A DNA stretch of 35,219 bases from an uncultured Bacilli bacterium (lineage in GTDB: Bacteria; Bacillota_I; Bacilli_A; RF39; UBA660). The stretch lies in the NCBI GenBank assembly GCA_947631135.1, contig CANRKE010000003.1, forward strand, positions 1 to 35,219, in the 5' to 3' direction. Below, one piece after another: positions 7,324 to 25,852 of this stretch. A program made the position numbers and the translations under genes. Under the pieces are notes generated by a model. It worked only from the letters and a program-made list of their open reading frames with translations, did not search any database and was not told the DNA's origin. Position 1 is the first letter of the stretch, and each line of letters begins with the position of its first letter.

Positions 7324-9366
7324 ATGAAAAAAAATAAAAAGATATTGTTAATAAGTGGTATATCGATTGTTGTAATCGCACTTTTATCAACTATATATGT
7401 CATTTTAACAACACCAGATAAAGATACAACATTAACAGCTATAGAAAAAAGATATGTAACAAGAAATAAAAGTAAAGTGTTAAATATTGCAATACCAAAT
7501 GATATACCTGTATTTAGTTTAAATGGTGAAGGTGTATTTTTCGATTTTGTAAAAGATTTTAGTGATGATATAGAATTAAAATTAAATGAAGTACCATACA
7601 ACATTGGAGAAGAACCATCATTATATGATTATAAATTTGAGATTACAAGAGATGTAGATAAAAATCAAATCTTATTATACCAAGATTATTATGTTGCATT
7701 GTCACAACAAAATGAAAAATTATCAAGTATAAATGATTTAAATAAGATGAGTATAGGTACAATCAATAATAATATGGAGAATATAACATATTATTTAAAT
7801 GATATAGATGCATCATTTATACAAAAGAAAAGCATAGATGATTTATTTACTGGGCTTGAAAAAGAAGAATATGATATAGTAATAGTTCCATATATGACAT
7901 ATTTAAATGAGATATTATCTAAAAAATTTAATATAGTATATAATTTTAATGATATAAAAGATAATTATGTACTTACATTATCAGATAATAATGATACAGT
8001 AAATACGATACTAAAAAAATATTATGAACTATGGAACCAAAATGATTATATAAAATCATATAATGAAGCATATAAAACAATTTATTATTCAGTAAAAGGT
8101 ATAAAGTCTAAAGATCAAGCACAATTAGTTGGAAAAGTTTATAACTACGGATATGTAGATAATCTACCATTTGAAAAAGTTGTAAATAAAAATTTAATAG
8201 GTATTAATGGAGAGTATATAAATTCATTTGCTAATTTAACAGATTCAGAATTTAAATTTAAAAAATATAATTCAATAAGCGATCTAATTGAAGCATTTAA
8301 TAATAATGAAGTAGATATAATTTTTAATAATTTTAATACAAGTAATGCGTTATCTGATGCATATCAAACAATATCTACATATAAAGAAAAATTTGTAGTA
8401 CTTGCAAATATAAAAAATAATTTTATAATAGATACATCTAGAGGTTTAAAAGATGAAACGGTATATGCACTTGAAGATAGTGACCTTGCAACATATATAA
8501 AATCTAATACAGAAGCTAAATTAAAGACATTTAAAAATTATGGGGTATTATTGAATAATTTAAAAGATGATATGTTAGTCATAATGGATTATGATGTATA
8601 CAATTATTATAAAAATGATGAATTAAAAGATTATTATATTGCATATACATCAACATTTGATAATTCGTATAATTTTATAATTAAGAATAATAATAGTAAT
8701 AATATATTATTACAAATGTTCAATGATTTTATATCAAGTAGAAGTTTTGAACATATAAAAGTTAATGCATACAAAAATATAACAATCAATCCTAAAAATG
8801 AAACACTTGCACAAACTATATTTAATTATTTACTGTTTATAGTGTTCCCACTAATAATAATAATTTTGATATTATCAGTTATATTTAAAAAGAGAAAAGA
8901 GAAAAAAGTAATTAAAAAAGATGAAAAATTAAGATATATAGATATGCTTACATCACTTAAAAATAGAAATTATTTGAACGCAAATATAGAAACATGGGAT
9001 GAAGCAAAAGTATATCCACAAACTGTAATAATAATAGATTTAAATAATTTAAAATATATAAATGATAATTTTGGACATGAAGAAGGAGATAATGTTATTA
9101 AAGCAGCTGCTAATATACTTATAAAAACACAATTAGAAAGTAGTGAAATAATAAGGACAGATGGTAATGAATTTCTTATATATTTAATAGGATATAAAGA
9201 AGAACAAATAGTTAGTTATATGAGAAAATTATATAAAGCTATGAAAGATTTACCACATGGATATGGTGCAGCATTTGGTTATAGTATGATAGATGATGAT
9301 ATTAAACTTTTAGATGACGCTATTAACGAAGCTACATTAGATATGAGAAGTAATAAAGAATCATAG
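7324..9366 (+). CDS. Membrane protein with tandem solute-binding-like extracellular domains and a degenerate GGDEF domain
   Basis: N-terminal TM, two similar PBP-like segments (IPVFS/LPFEK), a second TM, then DMLTSLKNR, IIIDLNNLKYINDNFGHEEGD and RTDGNEF in place of R.GGDEF. Confidence 0.8.
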   Translation: MKKNKKILLISGISIVVIALLSTIYVILTTPDKDTTLTAIEKRYVTRNKSKVLNIAIPNDIPVFSLNGEGVFFDFVKDFSDDIELKLNEVPYNIGEEPSLYDYKFEITRDVDKNQILLYQDYYVALSQQNEKLSSINDLNKMSIGTINNNMENITYYLNDIDASFIQKKSIDDLFTGLEKEEYDIVIVPYMTYLNEILSKKFNIVYNFNDIKDNYVLTLSDNNDTVNTILKKYYELWNQNDYIKSYNEAYKTIYYSVKGIKSKDQAQLVGKVYNYGYVDNLPFEKVVNKNLIGINGEYINSFANLTDSEFKFKKYNSISDLIEAFNNNEVDIIFNNFNTSNALSDAYQTISTYKEKFVVLANIKNNFIIDTSRGLKDETVYALEDSDLATYIKSNTEAKLKTFKNYGVLLNNLKDDMLVIMDYDVYNYYKNDELKDYYIAYTSTFDNSYNFIIKNNNSNNILLQMFNDFISSRSFEHIKVNAYKNITINPKNETLAQTIFNYLLFIVFPLIIIILILSVIFKKRKEKKVIKKDEKLRYIDMLTSLKNRNYLNANIETWDEAKVYPQTVIIIDLNNLKYINDNFGHEEGDNVIKAAANILIKTQLESSEIIRTDGNEFLIYLIGYKEEQIVSYMRKLYKAMKDLPHGYGAAFGYSMIDDDIKLLDDAINEATLDMRSNKES

Positions 9367-16931: not shown

Positions 16932-17594
16932 ATGATAGGAAATAAATGGGATGAAGTATTAAAAGAAGAATTTAATAAAGATTATTTTCTAAAACTTATG
17001 GATTTTATTCAAAATGAATATAAAGAAAAGATAGTATATCCATATTATCCTAATATTTTTAATGCCCTTAAATATACTGATTATGATAAAGTAAAAGTAG
17101 TAATTATTGGTCAAGATCCATATCATGGATTAGGTGAAGCACATGGGTTATCGTTTTCTGTTTTAGAAGGTGTAAAAAAACCTCCTTCACTTAAAAATAT
17201 ATTTAAAGAATTACATGATGATTTAAATATACCTGAACCATTATATGGTAATTTAAAAAAATGGACTGATGAAGGTGTAATGCTTCTTAATACAGTTTTA
17301 ACTGTTGAAAAAGATAAACCTGCCTCTTACCAAAATATAGGGTGGGAAACTTTTACTGATGCTGTTATAAGTAAAATAAATGAAAAAGATACTCCTGTTG
17401 TATTTATACTTTGGGGTAACTTTGCTAAAGGTAAACAATCACTTATAACTAATCCTAAACATTATGTAATTACTTCTGCACATCCATCACCATTTTCAGC
17501 AAACAAAGGATTCTTTGGTACAAAACCATTTTCTAAAACAAATGAGTTTTTAAAGAAAAATGGAATAGATCCTATTAATTGGGATTTAAATTAA
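16932..17594 (+). CDS. ung: Uracil-DNA glycosylase family 1
   Basis: GQDPYH, AHGLSFSV, PPSLKNI, LLNTVLTV, VFILWG and HPSP motifs. Confidence 0.97.
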   Translation: MIGNKWDEVLKEEFNKDYFLKLMDFIQNEYKEKIVYPYYPNIFNALKYTDYDKVKVVIIGQDPYHGLGEAHGLSFSVLEGVKKPPSLKNIFKELHDDLNIPEPLYGNLKKWTDEGVMLLNTVLTVEKDKPASYQNIGWETFTDAVISKINEKDTPVVFILWGNFAKGKQSLITNPKHYVITSAHPSPFSANKGFFGTKPFSKTNEFLKKNGIDPINWDLN

Positions 17595-17598
17595 AACC

Positions 17599-17635
17599 GA
17601 GTAGAGGAAAATAATTAAATTATTTACCTCTACTT
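17599..17635 (+). terminator. Terminator-like hairpin after ung
   Basis: gagtagagg-aaaataatt...aattattta-cctctactt. Confidence 0.65.
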
Positions 17636-19396: not shown

Positions 19397-20623
19397 ATGG
19401 GTTTAATTAAAGCACTAACATCTAGTACTTCATCAGTTTTAGGAGATCAATTTAAAGAGTTTATAACATGTCCTACAATTGATAAAAATGTACTAGTACA
19501 AAGGGGAGAAATACATCACGGAGATGGAAACAAAAATCCTTCCGAAGGAGTAATATCAAACGGAAGTGGCATTGTTGTACCAGAAAGTACAGCAATGATG
19601 ATAATTGAAAACGGAAAAATTTTAGATTTTTCTGCAGAAGCTGGAACATACACTTTTGATAATAGTTCAGAACCAAGTATTTTTACTGGAGGATTTGGAA
19701 ATGGATTAAAAGAAAGTATCAAAAATATTGGAAGTCGTATTACTTTTGGTGGTGGTACTGCTAAAGACCAAAGGGTTTACTATATAAACTTACTTTCATT
19801 GACTGGAAATAAATTTGGTTCACCACAACCAAAAAAAATAACAGATGATAAATACGGAATGTTAGAAGTTACATTCTTTGGAGAATATGCAATAAAAGTT
19901 GATAATCCTGCTGTATTAATAGAAAATGTCATAGGATCAAATGCAAAAGATACAATATTGTTTTCTGATATTTTAGAGGATCAATTCAAGACTAAATTTG
20001 TTGAAAAATTAACTCAAGCAATAACAACAGTTATGAGAAAGCACAAAATTCCATTTGGTGATATAGGAATGTATGGAACTGATATTTCTAATGAGATGAA
20101 TAATCTTTTAGATAGTGACTTAGTTTCTAAGTATGGTATTAAGATTTCTGATGTTGCAATAGCAGATATAAATTTGACTGATGAATCTATGAAAAGAGTA
20201 TCAAAAATTGATGATGCAACTATATTCTCAGATGCAAAATTACAAAGTGGTTTAATGGCTAATGCAAGTGCTGAAGCTTTACAAAATGCTGCTTCCAATG
20301 GAAATGGAGCAATGATGGGATTTATGGGAATGAATATGGCAAATAATGCAGGAACAACTATGATGGGAGCAGTTAATCAAAATCCATATTCTGATAATTC
20401 TGTAAAGGAAGAAAAAGAAATAATAGAACCAGGAACTCTTTTCCAAAATAATACAGACACAAAAGAAAATAGTATAGAGTCAAAAAATGAAAATGATATT
20501 AATCAAGAATCTAAAGAAGAAACAATAGCAAATTCTAGTGCTAGTCCAAAGTTTTGTCCTGAATGTGGAACTAAAACAAATGGTGGAAACTTCTGCACTA
20601 ATTGTGGTCACAAATTACAATAA
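19397..20623 (+). CDS. SPFH/band 7 domain protein (YdjI-like) with C-terminal Zn ribbon
   Basis: MGLIKA..., VISNGS.IVVPE, GTYTFD.SSEPSIF, QRVYYIN, GNKFGSP, Ala/Met/Gly-rich segment, FCPECG...FCTNCG; strong aaggagg RBS. Confidence 0.87.
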   Translation: MGLIKALTSSTSSVLGDQFKEFITCPTIDKNVLVQRGEIHHGDGNKNPSEGVISNGSGIVVPESTAMMIIENGKILDFSAEAGTYTFDNSSEPSIFTGGFGNGLKESIKNIGSRITFGGGTAKDQRVYYINLLSLTGNKFGSPQPKKITDDKYGMLEVTFFGEYAIKVDNPAVLIENVIGSNAKDTILFSDILEDQFKTKFVEKLTQAITTVMRKHKIPFGDIGMYGTDISNEMNNLLDSDLVSKYGIKISDVAIADINLTDESMKRVSKIDDATIFSDAKLQSGLMANASAEALQNAASNGNGAMMGFMGMNMANNAGTTMMGAVNQNPYSDNSVKEEKEIIEPGTLFQNNTDTKENSIESKNENDINQESKEETIANSSASPKFCPECGTKTNGGNFCTNCGHKLQ

Positions 20624-20653
20624 TTGATACAAAATTATTTTGTAATTTAAATT

Positions 20654-20703
20654 AAATCACGGTACTTATTCTAAATGAATAAGACTGTGATTTTTATTTT
20701 TTT
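20654..20703. terminator. Terminator after the SPFH operon (probably bidirectional)
   Basis: aaatcacggt-a-cttattc-taaat-gaataag-actgtgattt followed by a T tract. Confidence 0.75.
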
Positions 20704-20706
20704 AAC

Positions 20707-20891
20707 TAATTTATTTTCATCAACATATTATAATTAAGTGAATTTTCTTTTGAAATAGCAGATCTTTTTGTTTCTTTTTCATAAGATAGTCTTACACTAT
20801 TTGCAACTTTTCCAAAACGAATGACAATTTCAGGATCAAATATTTCATCAATTCTTTCACACATAATTTTGCTAGTTAAAGCTTAAATGGC
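20707..20891 (-). pseudogene. Decayed, internally deleted copy of the Bro-N-like gene at 22096..22956
   Basis: 20707..20820 matches 22114..22228 (110/115 by hand: four substitutions and a 1-bp deletion). 20821..20891 matches 22571..22642 more loosely. The intervening ~342 bp are missing. Confidence 0.9.
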
Positions 20892-20914
20892 ACTCTCTTC
20901 AAATTAATATGATT

Positions 20915-21934
20915 TTATTTATTTTCTAAATCAATATGTAAATTTAATTCTTCTTCAGTCGGTAATTCTTTTAAAATTTCAGGTGGTAAATATTCCGATA
21001 ATTCATACGAACTAACTCCAATTGGTTTATTTATATCTCTTAACGCATATTCAACATTTAATTTATTTTTATTTCTAACAAGTATAATCCCAATAGATGG
21101 ATTATCTAATTCTGTTTTTAATGTATCATCTAATGCAGATAAATAATAATTCATTTTTCCTGCGTATTCTGGTATAAATTTTTTATTTTTAAGTTCAATT
21201 GCAACATAACAATGTAACTTAGTATGGTAAAATAATAAGTCAATAAAATTTTCTTCGTCATTAACTGTAACTCTATATTTATTAGCAATAAAACTAAATC
21301 CATTTCCTAATTCTAACAAAGTCATTTTAATTCTATCTATCATTGCTTTTTCGATATCTTTTTCTACAAAATTCTCACGTAGTGCACCAACATCAAATAT
21401 ATAAGGATCTTTCATAATTTCTTTTGCTAAAGAACTTTGTGGTTGTAGAAGTGTTAGTTTAAAATTATTAGGTTTATCCCCAAGAATTTGCCTACTATAT
21501 GCATTTCTTCTTATTTGAGTTTCTAAATAATCATAACTCCAACCATTATTATAAGTTTCTTTTATATACCATATTTTTTGATTATTATCCTTAACTCGAT
21601 GCATTATTAATGTATTGTGTGACCACGGTATTTTATATGAATATTCTTTCAATTGTTCATTGTCTTTTACTGATAAATAATACTTCTTCATATCACGAAG
21701 ATTTCTAGGAGAATAACCTTTTGCATTAGGAAATTCAAGTTTCAATTCAATTGACATTTCATTTATAAAATTGTTACCATATTCACTATTCTCATATATA
21801 ATTTTACCAATATAAAAATATAAATCCATTACATTAATATTAGCATTTTCAAATATTTCTAATTGAGTATTTTTGATTTTAGTTACTATTTTATCTATAG
21901 CAATCTTAAAGTCATTTAATTTAATTTCTATCAT
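20915..21934 (-). CDS. YhcG/DUF1016 family PD-(D/E)XK nuclease domain protein
   Basis: GYSPRNLRDM, IPWSH, NGWS...L..QI, KDPYIFD, LLELGNGFSF, IDLLFYH..L.CYVAIELK, GKMNYY, SIGIIL; ggagg RBS. Confidence 0.92.
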   Translation of the reverse strand: MIEIKLNDFKIAIDKIVTKIKNTQLEIFENANINVMDLYFYIGKIIYENSEYGNNFINEMSIELKLEFPNAKGYSPRNLRDMKKYYLSVKDNEQLKEYSYKIPWSHNTLIMHRVKDNNQKIWYIKETYNNGWSYDYLETQIRRNAYSRQILGDKPNNFKLTLLQPQSSLAKEIMKDPYIFDVGALRENFVEKDIEKAMIDRIKMTLLELGNGFSFIANKYRVTVNDEENFIDLLFYHTKLHCYVAIELKNKKFIPEYAGKMNYYLSALDDTLKTELDNPSIGIILVRNKNKLNVEYALRDINKPIGVSSYELSEYLPPEILKELPTEEELNLHIDLENK

Positions 21935-21950
21935 ATTTAAACCTCCTCGT

Positions 21951-21980
21951 ACAATTTGGCAGACGTGTCTGCAAAATTGT
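21951..21980. repeat. 30-bp near-perfect palindrome immediately 5' of the YhcG RBS
   Basis: acaatttggcagac-gt-gtctgcaaaattgt: 14-bp arms with one mismatch. Confidence 0.9.
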
Positions 21981-22095
21981 TATTTATTTTAATTTATTTT
22001 TTAAAATTACGTTTAATTTTATCTACAAGTAAAATCATCTTATCATGAATTGCATGTTTTTCTCTATAAAATCCACAGTATCAGATTCAATAGAT

Positions 22096-22956
22096 TTAAA
22101 TTTTTTGTTCAATTAATTTATTTTCATCAACATATTGATAATTAAGTGAATTTTCTTTTGAAATAGCAGATCTTTTTGTTTCTTTTTCATAAGATAGTCT
22201 CGCACTATTTGCAACTTTTCCACCACGAGCAGCAACTTTCATATTTTCATTTAAACCTTTTGGGTGTTCAGAGGTTGCTATATCACGAGCAGCAATTTCA
22301 CCAATATTAGTTAGTGCAATTTCAATATCTGTCATATTATCCCTTAAGCTTTCTTTTCTTAAACCTTTATATACTTTGTATTCTTTCGCTTTCATTCCAG
22401 ACCAACCTTTATATATTTCATTTGTAAGCATTGCATATTCTACTGGCTTTTCGATTCCACCAGATTTCCATATATCAGTTAATTTAAATCTATCGACAAT
22501 TTCAATTAATCTTTTTTTAATCCACTCATCACTATAACCTAATCTTCTATAATAATTAACAGCTCTATTAATAGCAATTTCAGGATCAAATACTTCATCA
22601 ATTCTTTCACTACCCAATTTTGCTAGCCAATGTTTAAATGGCTCTGCTTTAGGTGAAGGAACAGATTCAATTAATCTTAATATTCCTTTAGTATCAAGTG
22701 TATCTGTTAAATAACTTTTTCCATCTTTTTTAGATTTCATTTTTAGTTGCACGATATTTTCGTGCAACTCACTACCTTCTTGTTTCAACTTTCTTTTTAA
22801 ATCACTCCAATAATTTCTAGGAATATTAGCATCAGTTAAAATACCAATAACATCAACTACACTAAAATAATAATCTTCTTTCTCACTATCCCATATACTT
22901 CTAATTTCACTACCCTCAAATAGATTAGTAATTGTTTCTAATTTGTTTTGTTTCAT
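22096..22956 (-). CDS. Bro-N-like / phage antirepressor-type DNA-binding protein
   Basis: IRSIWD...YYFSVVDVI, RNYWSDLKRKL, DGK.Y.TD, RLIESVPSPKAEPFK.WLA, LRDNMTD.E motifs. Confidence 0.8.
   Translation of the reverse strand: MKQNKLETITNLFEGSEIRSIWDSEKEDYYFSVVDVIGILTDANIPRNYWSDLKRKLKQEGSELHENIVQLKMKSKKDGKSYLTDTLDTKGILRLIESVPSPKAEPFKHWLAKLGSERIDEVFDPEIAINRAVNYYRRLGYSDEWIKKRLIEIVDRFKLTDIWKSGGIEKPVEYAMLTNEIYKGWSGMKAKEYKVYKGLRKESLRDNMTDIEIALTNIGEIAARDIATSEHPKGLNENMKVAARGGKVANSARLSYEKETKRSAISKENSLNYQYVDENKLIEQKI
22745..22769. repeat. Perfect intragenic palindrome in the Bro-N-like gene
   Basis: agttgcacga-tattt-tcgtgcaact: 10-bp arms; encodes (E)LHENIVQ(L) on the minus strand. Confidence 0.9.
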
Positions 22957-23002
22957 TTTTATAATATCCTTTCGTTTATATATACTTCATAAATGTAATC
23001 AC

Positions 23003-23031
23003 AGTATAATATAATCTACATTAACAGTCAA
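23003..23031 (-). promoter_or_regulatory. SigA-type promoter for the Bro-N-like gene
   Basis: Minus strand TTGACT-17 nt-TATACT. Confidence 0.65.
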
Positions 23032-23146
23032 TACTTTTATTTAAATTAGCAAGTAAAATATTCTTGCATATTATTTATACTAATCTACAAATGAACTATA
23101 TGAATAAAATATTTCATATTACCATAAATTTAAATAGGTGATATTA

Positions 23147-24067
23147 ATGAAGAATGCATGCATATTTTATTATAATTTAAATCCAGAAGTAATACATCAA
23201 AAAGATGGAGTATATTATTTTAAAATAAATGAAGAAAGATATTATTTATTTCCATGTTATAGATCTAGAGAAGAATTAAATTCAATATATAAAATATCAT
23301 CTGAATTAATAAATAAAAATATATATGTACATCAAATAGTATTAAATAAAGATAATAATATTATTACTATAATAGATAACATTATGTATGTATTACTTAA
23401 AATATATATTAAAGAAAATGAATTTATAAATGTTGATAATATTTCTTATTTAACTAATAATACACTTATTAAAAAAGAAAAAGATATATTAATACAAAAA
23501 GATTGGGCAAGTTTATGGGAAGTTAAAAATGATTATTTAGAATATCAAATTAGTCAATTTGGAGTTAAATATAAAAGTGTAGCAGCCTCTTTTAGTTATT
23601 ATATTGGTATAGCTGAAAATGCAATCAGTTATGCTAGAAATACATTAATAGAAAATAAAGATAGAATAAATCTATCTATTGCTCATAGAAGAATAACATC
23701 AACAAACACCAATTTAGATTTATATAATCCACTTGAATTTATAATAGATTATAGAGTACGTGATATTGCTGAATATGTTAAATCATGTTTCTTTGATAAT
23801 AAAAAAGAATTATTAGAAATAATTATTAAATTTTTTAATAATGTTAGACCTAATAATTTTGAAGCTAGAATGTTTTATGCAAGATTATTATATCCTACAT
23901 ATTATTTTGATATATTTGAGAATATAGTTGATGAAGAAATAGAAGAATCTGAACTTGATAAGATTGTAAGTATGTCACATGAATATGAATTATTTTTAAA
24001 GAGTGTATTTATATATTTATCAAATAATTATTATATGCCTGAAATTACATGGTTAATTAAATCTTAA
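23147..24067 (+). CDS. YutH/CotS-like spore-coat kinase-fold protein
   Basis: WASLWEVKNDYLEYQ, SFSYYIGIAENAISY, IAHRR, NPLEFIIDYRVRDIAEYVK and FYARLLYPTYYFD resemble Bacillus YutH; ATG 23147 after aggtga (GTG 23138 is the alternative). Confidence 0.7.
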   Translation: MKNACIFYYNLNPEVIHQKDGVYYFKINEERYYLFPCYRSREELNSIYKISSELINKNIYVHQIVLNKDNNIITIIDNIMYVLLKIYIKENEFINVDNISYLTNNTLIKKEKDILIQKDWASLWEVKNDYLEYQISQFGVKYKSVAASFSYYIGIAENAISYARNTLIENKDRINLSIAHRRITSTNTNLDLYNPLEFIIDYRVRDIAEYVKSCFFDNKKELLEIIIKFFNNVRPNNFEARMFYARLLYPTYYFDIFENIVDEEIEESELDKIVSMSHEYELFLKSVFIYLSNNYYMPEITWLIKS

Positions 24068-24200: not shown

Positions 24201-25337
24201 ATGAAAATTTTAAAAGTTGTCGCTAATAATTTTAAATTATGTGAAAACAATATGACTATTTCATTTATTCCAGAAGCAAATAAAACTTTAGATGATAAAG
24301 AATTTGAACTACATGAAATTGATGAAAACTTATTTGTATTTAATACGTTATGCATTATAGGAAAAAATGCATCTGGTAAAACAACAGTTATAGATTTGTT
24401 ATCCTTAGTTTATGAAATTTTCTCATTTTTTAGAGTTAAAAATACAACTAACTTATTTTTAAATTGGAACAAGCTTGTTAATTTAGATATAACATTTTAT
24501 AATGAAGGAAAATTATATAGATATATTACTGATTTATGTTTGGATGATAGTCCAGTAAATAAAACTGTTATTTTTAAAAATGAAAAATTATTTAGTAGAA
24601 CATATTATAAAACAATATCAAAAAAAATTTTTGATTATAGTAAATATGTTGAAATAATAACTGATTCTAAATTACCAGATGATACATCAATATTATATGA
24701 AGTTTTGAAAAAAATAAATATCAAAGGTATTTATTCTCCAAGTAATGACTTAAGTTATAGATATTATTATGAAACATTTAATATATATAAAATGATTGAT
24801 AATAATCATAAAATTATTGAGACAATATTAAAAATGTTTGATGAACATTTAGATAATATTGAAATGGTACATGATGATAAATTTGTTGTATATTATACAG
24901 ACAAGAGTAAAATCGAAGTAAATAGTAAAGAACTTTATGATATGTTGTCAAGTGGAACAACAAAAGGTCTTAATTTGTTTACTTACGTTGTTTATTCATT
25001 AAAATATGGAACAGATTTATTAATAGATGAAATTGAAAATCATTTTCATAAAACATTAGTTGAAAATCTTGTAAATTTATATAAAGATAAAAGTGTTAAT
25101 AAGAATAATGCCACATTAATTTTTACAACACATTATTGTGAATTACTTGATTTATTTAATAGATCTGATAATATTTATATTACTAAATATGATAAACAAA
25201 TAAAATTAGAAAACGTTTATATAAATTATGATTTTAGACCAGAATTATCAAAGAGTAAAAAATTTTATAGCAATGCGTTTAATACAGATGTTAATTATGA
25301 ATCACTTATGAACTTTAAAAAGGAATTAATGAAATAG
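24201..25337 (+). CDS. AAA_21-like (AbiEii/RloA-type) ABC-family ATPase
   Basis: NNFK near the N-terminus, Walker A GKNASGKT, signature LSSGT, Walker B LLIDEIENHFH, H-loop FTTH; no TM. Confidence 0.85.
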   Translation: MKILKVVANNFKLCENNMTISFIPEANKTLDDKEFELHEIDENLFVFNTLCIIGKNASGKTTVIDLLSLVYEIFSFFRVKNTTNLFLNWNKLVNLDITFYNEGKLYRYITDLCLDDSPVNKTVIFKNEKLFSRTYYKTISKKIFDYSKYVEIITDSKLPDDTSILYEVLKKINIKGIYSPSNDLSYRYYYETFNIYKMIDNNHKIIETILKMFDEHLDNIEMVHDDKFVVYYTDKSKIEVNSKELYDMLSSGTTKGLNLFTYVVYSLKYGTDLLIDEIENHFHKTLVENLVNLYKDKSVNKNNATLIFTTHYCELLDLFNRSDNIYITKYDKQIKLENVYINYDFRPELSKSKKFYSNAFNTDVNYESLMNFKKELMK

Positions 25338-25852
25338 TGAAATATTTAATTCTATGTGAAGGATCAAATGAAGTTTGCATTATTAATTTATTATTAAAAT
25401 ATAATAAATTAAAATTTAAAATAGATGATCTAATTTCTTTGAAACCATTTAATGCCAGACAACTATCAAATCCAACAATAAAATCAGAACTTAGAATATA
25501 TAATAAACCAGTACAAGTTTTAAGAATAGGTGATACGCAACGTGATAAATTTTTAATACCACATGATATAAATGATATTGTTTCAAAAGATAGAATATTT
25601 AAATATTGTACTTTACCAGAACTAGAAATCCTTATAATTATTAATGAAGGATTATATAAAAAGTATCTTAAATCTAAAGAAACTCCAAAAGTATTTGCAA
25701 AACGAAATGTTGTTTACAATAATTATAGATATGATCAATCCAATGAATTTTTAGAAATGTATTATGGAGGAAAAAGGATTAGTATGCTTATACAAAATTT
25801 AAAAAAATATAAACAGGGAGAACTATATTTAGCTGATTTATTAAAACAATAA
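25337..25852 (+). CDS. Hypothetical protein with TOPRIM/RloB-like acidic motifs
   Basis: The GTG start overlaps the ATPase TAG (TAGTG); YLILCEGSNE, LRIGDTQRD, CTLPELEILII. Confidence 0.6.
   Translation: MKYLILCEGSNEVCIINLLLKYNKLKFKIDDLISLKPFNARQLSNPTIKSELRIYNKPVQVLRIGDTQRDKFLIPHDINDIVSKDRIFKYCTLPELEILIIINEGLYKKYLKSKETPKVFAKRNVVYNNYRYDQSNEFLEMYYGGKRISMLIQNLKKYKQGELYLADLLKQ

Follow-up and report, generated by a model that had tools for sequence, protein, structure and literature searches.

The stretch of DNA analysed here (the window) comprises 35,219 nucleotides (nt), positions 1 to 35,219 of contig CANRKE010000003.1 (assembly GCA_947631135.1), from an uncultured Bacilli bacterium. It is chromosomal, with genes for isoleucyl-tRNA synthetase, a sortase, thioredoxin, a GGDEF protein, ATP-binding cassette transporters and a uracil-DNA glycosylase (UDG), and it contains a small islet of defence type, made up of a yhcG gene (candidate defence system PDC-S02), a Bro-N gene (PDC-S13) and a gene for an AbiLi-like ATPase (Table 1). 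YhcG, also known as DUF1016 or COG4804, is a nuclease commonly found in defence islands, prophages and type I restriction loci. Our analysis concerns a palindrome in the 5′ leader of this yhcG gene, which in most members of the family lies inside the coding sequence, and which is possibly the site bound by the gene's own product. Both domains of the protein pass the Pfam gathering score (DUF1016_N, PF17761: 1.5e-32, 113 bits against a cut-off of 32.8; YhcG_C, PF06250: 6e-59, 198.8 bits against 32.5), and the PADLOC profile of PDC-S02 matches residues 6-335 (2.5e-116).

The palindrome reads ACAATTTGGCAGACGTGTCTGCAAAATTGT on the + strand. As the preliminary description of this DNA had stated, it is a GC-rich palindrome with 14-bp arms set against the ribosome-binding site: 13 of the 14 arm positions are complementary, with a G/A mismatch at 21958/21973, its G+C content is 40%, compared to 23.9% in the 1.18-Mb genome, and on the gene (-) strand it ends 16 nt 5′ of the yhcG ATG (21934) and 2 nt 5′ of GAGGAGG. 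The peptides announced there for both strands also follow from the letters: by eye, with one base added at the centre, the palindrome reads T-I-L-Q-T-x-S-A-K-L (-) and I-W-Q-T-x-S-A-K-L (+), and the yhcG gene of E. coli K-12 does encode KIWQTLSAKS. None of 100 shuffled windows contained a match, and the sequence occurs once in the whole 1.18-Mb genome, so that dispersal of the kind seen with repetitive extragenic palindromic (REP) sequences or Rickettsia palindromic elements (RPEs) was not found in its own genome. When the genome was scanned with a strict filter (at least 11 pairs, at most 1 mismatch, a spacer of at most 3 nt and at least 4 G/C per arm), 32 palindromes passed, and 2 of these 32 belong to the two DUF1016 genes of the genome. 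The second gene, on contig C12, carries its palindrome intragenically, and that sequence is also unique in the genome.

Table 1. Features at the yhcG locus of the window, followed by the E. coli K-12 gene.
Feature	Positions	Strand	Basis or remark
yhcG/DUF1016 gene, 339 aa	20915-21934	-	Pfam, PADLOC, profile and fold comparisons
30-bp palindrome, yhcG 5′ leader	21951-21980		arms 21951-21964 and 21967-21980, 2-nt centre; direct reading, shuffles, genome scan, covariation
Ribosome-binding site GAGGAGG	21942-21948	-	2 nt 3′ of palindrome, 7 nt 5′ of ATG; read from letters
Possible -10 box TAAAAT (tentative)	21986-21991	-	5 nt 5′ of palindrome; by eye
Codons of residues 93-103 (EQLKEYSYKIP), ancestral palindrome position	21626-21658	-	not palindromic here
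Bro gene 3′ remnant	20694-20894	-	directly 3′ of yhcG; repeats
Bro-N gene	22096-22956	-	PADLOC PDC-S13, 6e-110; context only, outside conserved module
309-aa ORF	23138-24067		no Pfam or PADLOC match
AbiLi-like gene	24201-25337		AbiLi match, 7e-36
171-aa ORF	25337-25849		directly after AbiLi-like gene; no match
E. coli K-12 yhcG	7828-8955 of locus L114		three tandem repeats of motif peptide

According to the preliminary description, DUF1016 proteins typically contain a variable peptide, encoded by a palindrome, just before a W-S-H motif. In support of this statement, 71 of 75 non-redundant genes carry such an intragenic palindrome. The genes were taken from 101 related genomes (36 of them with a match), 80 viral or prophage contigs and E. 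coli K-12; 111 were collected, the W could be aligned in 110, and 75 were left after removal of near-duplicates. A palindrome of at least 8 pairs, centred no more than 40 nt before the W codon, was present in 90 of the 110 genes and was the best or joint best of the entire gene in 82 of the 110; its usual centre lies exactly 17.5 nt before the W codon, which is the first base of codon -6. Note that the 8-pair threshold alone is loose in A+T-rich DNA, where 114 of 362 control windows pass it, and the claim therefore rests on a fixed-centre test, a comparison at 10 pairs or more and a G/C-filtered count. With the centre fixed, at least 8 of the 9 inner pairs were complementary in 45 of the 75 genes, compared to about 0.02% when 19,526 control centres within these genes were scored. 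Complementarity was 0.59 at the innermost pair, 0.77 at pair 2 and 0.76-0.88 over pairs 2-8, against about 0.27 in the controls, and pairs that involve third codon positions were complementary in 76-88% of cases, against about 27% at the control centres. A tolerant search recovered at least 10 pairs in 55 of the 75 genes and in 18 of the 362 control windows.

The sequences of these palindromes vary widely from gene to gene, for example GTTCAGACACTGTCTGAAC, GGTCGCCACTGGCGACC, TGTCCACAATGTGGACA and AATTTTTGCAAGGAGTCCTTGCAAAAATT, and the encoded peptide varies with them (QTLS, SPLA, STMW, QGVL). The pairing is thus kept at the cost of the protein sequence. Even paralogues within one genome (G044) have palindromes that are all different (8 of the 8 scored). 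The association was also seen in the reverse direction, since GCAGAC-N0-3-GTCTGC occurs 9 times in the 101 related genomes, 6 times within or directly 5′ of DUF1016 genes or their N-terminal fragments and 3 times at terminator-like or unrelated places. In E. coli K-12, two palindromes lie inside yhcG, one at +337 with 15 of 16 pairs and one at +374 with 17 of 18, and another, with 12 of 12 pairs, is found 15 nt past the stop codon. At its core the +374 palindrome is nearly that of the window, and this core encodes KIWQTLSAKS. The stretch is present in 3551 of 5426 E. coli genomes, in one place per genome (two at most) and always on the chromosome, and in 852 of the 3551 less than 80% of the 111-nt E. 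coli query was covered. In strains D217-5 and E1624 (L195, L196), insertion sequence (IS) elements break yhcG inside the +374 palindrome.

The window gene departs from this pattern. As stated in the preliminary description, its own pre-WSH codons (EQLKEYSYKIPWSH) are not palindromic, giving 5 of 6 pairs at best and, with the centre fixed, 3 complementary inner pairs out of 9. When the 75 genes were scored for both places by one fixed, G/C-filtered rule, 63 had only the intragenic site, 8 had both (with the gene's own site repeated upstream only in L006), 4 had only the upstream site and none lacked both (Fisher p 4e-4, a value to be read with the reservation that kin are not independent). The comparison that the preliminary description had proposed, whether one place stands in for the other, therefore came out in its favour: each of the four genes without an intragenic site has an upstream one. 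These four are the window gene, L005 (77% identity), L022 (33%, same genus) and L039 (41%, on a viral contig), and they represent three lineages; in each, a palindrome of the family type ends 14-18 nt before the ATG. The order palindrome, ribosome-binding site, ATG recurs in L005, L022, L039 and the close relatives, and by eye -10-like boxes lie 5-20 nt 5′ of the palindrome in L005, L022, L039 and L006. This relocation, together with the fact that no gene is without both sites, gives good support to the proposal that the palindrome is a cis-acting element which must stay with the gene and need not be translated.

To follow the move among relatives, the window protein was used to scan species genomes, which gave 35 loci from uncultured gut Bacilli, and metagenomes, which gave 6 more; 28 of these loci have the gene start in view. 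The preliminary description had raised the doubt that close relatives might lack the upstream palindrome, yet 23 of the 28 carry one at a distance of 12-22 nt from the ATG; these 23 genes encode proteins with 76-97% identity to that of the window, each with a non-palindromic peptide. Of the remaining five, four (L171, L175, L179 and L181) have their palindrome inside the gene and none upstream, and the same holds for L177 and L152; L176 was left unassigned, its start codon having been misplaced in the scoring. Sister genes with 60-70% identity retain the palindrome inside the gene and have none upstream. Because the 23 close relatives have the upstream site and the sisters keep the intragenic one, the comparison points to a single move of the palindrome at the base of the window's clade. 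What looks like an intermediate of such a relocation is L006 (51% identity), which carries both copies with nearly the same sequence.

The displaced palindrome is maintained as a palindrome. When the window was aligned with 22 relatives, 96.2% of the pair cells were paired, against 30-44% when the partners were slid, and none of 500 shuffles reached this value. Compensatory changes were found at two to three pairs (T-A/G-C, C-G/T-A): 13 distinct sequences have U-A at pair 12/27 and 6 have G-C, and at pair 18/21, 13 have C-G and 1 has U-A, with intermediates in the rest. Only the window copy is mismatched at 12/27, its distal arm being that of one variant and its proximal arm that of the other. 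Identity between the window and its closest relatives is 91-95% over the first 300 nt of the gene, 80-91% from -46 to -1 (palindrome and ribosome-binding site) and 55-68%, the background level, from -120 to -47. Since identity falls to background 5′ of -46, the conserved module begins at the distal edge of the palindrome. The genes upstream vary among the relatives, with Bro-N in this position in only 4 of 30 loci.

What kind of protein is encoded next to this element? In the family alignment the catalytic PD-(D/E)XK residues are present, with D232 and K249 invariant and, by eye, E or D at 247, and the model of the C-terminal domain, which is NucS/Hjc-like, matches nucleases of the NucS/EndoMS type (2vld, 5gke). 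The nuclease domain had been predicted earlier, with a likeness to PD-(D/E)XK enzymes of the junction-resolvase type, and the accessible portion of that report gives no fold for the N-terminal domain (PMC1189080). No solved structure was matched in sequence by the family profile. For the model of the N-terminal domain (pLDDT 91.9), the best three VIA matches all belong to the ParB family, namely the ParB DNA-binding domain (DBD) on parS (6s6h, Z 8.1), Spo0J (1vz0, Z 7.6) and KorB on its operator (1r71, Z 7.2), with SopB, P1 ParB and VirB lower in the list, and Foldseek returned weak matches to Spo0J-parS and Noc-NBS (E about 1, probability 0.66-0.72).

Since Z values of 7-8 are common for helical domains, we looked for a likeness to ParB at the sequence level. 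Alignment with hhalign of DUF1016_N to 14 ParB helix-turn-helix (HTH) domains of the related genomes gave a probability of 94.7% and an E value of 6.2e-8 over 67 columns, and the Pfam profile HTH_ParB (PF17762) gave sub-threshold matches in 7 of 23 N-domains. By this profile comparison, the N-terminal domain of YhcG is a helix-turn-helix of the ParB/KorB type. In the alignment, the helix S-x-R-N-L-x-x-M-x-x-F-Y falls on the ParB recognition helix, G-x-S on G-K-S, and the H of W-S-H on the H of the ParB G-H-A-R; the S of W-S-H falls on ParB G201, one of four specificity residues, and the palindrome-coded peptide on the stretch that joins helices a4 and a6. Two DBDs sit symmetrically on the palindrome in the ParB-parS co-crystal, through helices a4, a6 and a8, and in the accessible text of that report the a4-a6 segment is not among the DNA-contacting elements listed (PMC7383237). 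The palindrome can therefore sit at the pre-WSH codons, because what these encode is a tolerant section of the same domain that would bind the site. The protein is not a ParB proper: Pfam finds DUF1016_N and YhcG_C only, with no N-terminal ParB/Srx CTPase domain, and no ParA partner is present among the neighbours of yhcG, which are Bro-N, an unknown gene and the AbiLi-like gene.

Because the N-terminal domain is ParB-like, the explanation that we favour is that the palindrome is the cognate duplex site of the product of its own gene, probably an autoregulatory operator, and we give it a probability of a little under one half (about 0.45). We infer that the protein binds the site, that it does so as a dimer and that binding represses. 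Each yhcG gene would hold one private palindrome in cis, usually in the codons of the tolerant segment that separates the recognition helix from the WSH helix, and the ParB-like domain of each YhcG would bind the palindrome of its own gene as a two-fold symmetric pair. Bound YhcG would then block RNA polymerase by occlusion or as a roadblock; in most homologues the roadblock would stand about 290 nt into the open reading frame (ORF), and in the window's clade, where the palindrome would have moved between the likely promoter and the ribosome-binding site, it would be promoter-proximal. In this way each paralogue may limit its own expression of a potentially toxic nuclease, and the private sequences would insulate paralogues from one another, without cross-talk. 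All three relocated lineages have retained W-S-H although the Q-T-x-S peptide is lost in them; W-S-H is also present wherever an intragenic site is of the CAGAC type (11 of 11 genes), and genes with CAACA-type sites have W-G-H (6 of 6). The retention of W-S-H despite the loss of Q-T-x-S thus fits reader residues that lie outside the coded peptide, a correlation that kinship confounds. A mutual-information scan had positions 108, 77, 105 and 81 as its top non-coded positions, ParB contact equivalents among them; it is likewise confounded by kinship and is not relied on.

Several observations weigh against self-recognition. The Z values given above may reflect a shared arrangement of helices only, the best family member reaches 20.6 bits with HTH_ParB, below the cut-off of 22.6, and the window protein has no match to it. 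The putative recognition helix S-x-R-N-L-x-x-M-x-x-F-Y is strongly conserved, whereas the sites are very diverse. A consensus promoter scan called no promoter 5′ of the window palindrome. The outer conserved AATT boxes lie 17-19 bp apart and the central spacer is 0, 1, 2 or 3 nt; this variable spacing, with the weak innermost pair (59%), is easier to explain with a hairpin than with a rigid dimer. Finally, extra copies of the palindrome occur just 3′ of the stop codon in L037, L039, L070, L011 and E. coli, and a simple operator does not need them.

Copies of this kind bear on a different explanation, which we regard as unlikely: the palindrome would be a substrate, nicked or cut by YhcG or a host enzyme on a cruciform, or a recombination junction at which the yhcG module moves or is reshuffled. 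Palindromes flank the gene in L039 (-39 and +1014) and in L011 (-145 and +1156, within direct repeats of about 120 bp), in L037, L070 and E. coli one lies past the stop codon, and the nuclease domain resembles both NucS/EndoMS and the PD-(D/E)XK enzymes of the junction-resolvase type in the accessible text of PMC1189080. Homology among close relatives ends exactly at the palindrome, the window copy is a hybrid of two arm variants, and in the two E. coli strains IS elements have broken yhcG inside the palindrome. The 3′ remnant of a Bro gene downstream of yhcG repeats the 3′ part of Bro-N (22101-22645) with an internal deletion (a 91-nt repeat at 96%, plus repeats of 41 and 36 nt); the yhcG module of the window therefore lies between Bro-derived direct repeats, as though it had arrived by insertion into Bro genes or by recombination between them. 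The number of family matches, up to 12-15 in genomes of 1.2-2.1 Mb, would also suit a moving module. A self-cut site in its own gene, however, would be self-destructive unless controlled, sites that are single-copy per genome leave no dispersed targets, a perfect palindrome cannot give recombination a direction, and no clear excised or empty form was seen among the fragmentary contigs of four DNA runs aligned to the window. Such a substrate role is compatible with binding by the ParB-like domain and partly overlaps with the self-recognition that we favour. One contig from these runs has a loose end at 21980, from which no conclusion is drawn. A target of programmed inversion was considered and rejected: in the accessible text of Milman et al. 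(PMC9881135), DUF1016 is listed only as a neighbour of inversion targets.

Rather unlikely, in our judgement, is an RNA hairpin in the yhcG transcript, recognised by its shape, whose sequence would drift through compensatory changes; it would act as a 5′ stabiliser, a block beside the ribosome-binding site, a translational brake or, within the ORF, an RNase target. The window palindrome does fold stably as RNA (-11.9 kcal/mol, z = -4.4; -12.9 to -16.6 kcal/mol in relatives), it adjoins the ribosome-binding site and probably lies in the transcribed leader. The covariation is of the classic compensatory type and goes with a family-wide turnover of sequence, and the variable central spacer and the innermost pair at 0.59 are as expected of a loop. 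Against a hairpin, G:U-compatible mismatches are not in excess on the sense strand: across the family the mismatches there are G:T 10, A:C 20 and other 59, and among the intermediates of the close clade U:G is about as frequent as C:A, a strand symmetry that also favours the duplex site. Moreover, pairing is kept to within one pair of the dyad (0.77 at the second pair), and spacers of 0-1 nt would force several selected pairs of an RNA hairpin open. Recognition by shape only would leave unexplained that the second copies in L006, L011 and L070 repeat the gene's own sequence, and the protein encoded next door has a DNA-binding domain of the ParB type. No Rfam family matched; searches with the Rfam 15 covariance models gave sub-threshold noise only (CRISPR-DR40, E 0.55; mir-266, E 0.5; tRNA elsewhere).

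A more elaborate form of self-recognition, a self-coded lock and key, appears improbable; in it the palindrome would serve both as the target and as the codons for part of the DNA-binding domain that reads it. The coded peptide does adjoin the residue aligned with the ParB specificity residue G201, and if this idea were true, one mutation would alter site and reader together and lead to a fast split into many orthogonal nuclease-site pairs, with one pair for each paralogue. It is weakened by the genes whose CAGAC-type site has moved upstream, which no longer encode Q-T-x-S, and by the alignment of the coded segment with a part of ParB outside the DNA-contacting helices listed in the accessible text of PMC7383237.

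Least credible of all is an ordinary feature (the intrinsic terminator of Bro-N, a chance palindrome or a DUF1016 coding relic): the palindrome lies 115 nt 3′ of the Bro-N stop codon, T-rich sequence comes next on the + strand and the reading with one added base resembles the family peptide, but on the strand of Bro-N and yhcG the stem is followed by ACGAGGAGG, with no T-run, the distance to the ATG is conserved at 12-22 nt, the arms covary and no DUF1016 homology extends beyond the palindrome. The preliminary description had itself allowed that the palindrome might act only as the Bro-N terminator. This was rejected: a terminator scan of 20600-23200 called 0 terminator-like sites, the palindrome is kept with other upstream genes in L005, L022, L039 and most close relatives, and homology ends at its distal edge. 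A relic of a second, upstream DUF1016 gene was rejected as well, with one DUF1016_N match on the contig and no family peptide beyond the palindrome.

Known systems offer partial parallels. ParB-parS, Noc-NBS and KorB with its operator are like the DUF1016 N-domain in the HTH alignment and perhaps in fold, where they are the best structure matches, at Z values common for helical domains. One parS site of B. subtilis lies within spo0J, and KorB represses its own operon. YhcG differs from ParB in having no CTPase domain by Pfam and in the fusion of the HTH to a PD-(D/E)XK nuclease, and its site, unlike parS, is private to each gene, single-copy, longer (17-31 bp) and placed at fixed codons of its own DNA-binding domain. 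Proteins of the ParB type bind palindromes of 13-16 bp symmetrically, according to the accessible text of PMC7383237. A direct analogy to parS within the ParB genes of the relatives was tried and rejected; none of 14 ParB loci had such a site, apart from one 2-mismatch site far from the gene.

Cis-acting sites are also found inside the gene of their binder in the lambda ori within gene O and in pac within small-terminase genes. As there, a specificity-matched site in or beside the gene of its binder is co-inherited when modules are exchanged; the context of yhcG, in contrast, is a chromosomal defence islet with no sign of replication or packaging, and its site is one palindrome, not an iteron array. 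The operators of C-proteins of restriction-modification systems and those of autoregulated toxin-antitoxin systems are palindromic, system-specific, placed 5′ of a nuclease or toxin gene and restrain its expression. In those systems a separate small regulator binds, whereas in YhcG the putative binder and the nuclease form one polypeptide and the site is usually translated. Protein-coding palindromes are known as the RPEs of Rickettsia (cited in the accessible text of PMC4316617). Like the YhcG palindrome these are read through in protein without breaking the frame, but they are selfish repeats of 100-150 nt in many unrelated genes, whereas the YhcG palindrome is 17-31 bp long, single-copy, confined to one family and one codon position, and different in every gene.

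The element was not described in the full-text literature that we searched on DUF1016, YhcG, COG4804 and PDC-S02 and on palindromes in nuclease genes, a search that left subscription journals and supplements outside. In papers that combine DUF1016 with the word palindrome, the word means unrelated repeats, as far as the accessible text goes (PMC4316617). New are the translation of the site at fixed codons across the family, its privacy to each gene, the nuclease fusion and the natural relocation to the leader. A gene-private palindrome translated at fixed codons represents selection at the DNA level that overrides protein sequence, which is rare, and the family gains a concrete candidate ligand, its own site, putatively read by the ParB-like domain. 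Because it has parted the DNA element from its usual peptide, the relocation to the leader in three lineages provides a ready-made control. If the protein does bind its own site, the family would offer many naturally orthogonal protein-site pairs and a clean system for the co-evolution of DNA-binding specificity and target. Annotators and modellers should be cautious with the variable pre-WSH peptide, which is shaped by nucleotide pairing and not by protein function.

Some further observations concern the family and its palindromes. In L011 (G004:C53), direct repeats of about 120 bp bracket the DUF1016 gene (about -220 to -100 and +1080 to +1200); each contains, after a terminator-like hairpin, the exact sequence of the gene's own intragenic palindrome, making three identical copies in total. 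The viral-contig genes L051, L063 and L072 have two tandem palindromes in the ORF, either one perfect and one decayed or, in L072, two alike and 18 nt apart, with extra residues between palindrome and W. The palindrome unit evidently duplicates locally. Copy numbers of DUF1016 matches can be very high in small genomes, with 12 matches in 1.2 Mb and 15 in 2.1 Mb (G044, G069), several of them fragments or with stop codons, and the family expands and decays like a mobile or rapidly turning-over defence gene. At seven loci (L005, L164, L165, L168, L170, L171, L174) a second conserved inverted repeat, TGATATTGG-TAAA-CCAATATCA, lies about 25-45 nt 5′ of the yhcG palindrome, in overlap with a -35-like TTGGTA box. 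The window lacks this repeat, which another regulator may use as its operator.

Other palindromes of the same genome were also recorded. A dispersed family, AAGCTTACCTAAA(0-2 nt)TTTAGGTAAGCTT, has at least 9 copies, on contigs C1, C19, C21, C26, C37, C39, C43, C45 and C58, and may be a REP-like repeat or a shared terminator. In the window itself, a palindrome with 17-bp arms, AGTAGAGGAAAATAATTAAATTATTTACCTCTACT (17600-17634), stands right after the gene of the UDG family (16932-17591) and is probably its terminator.

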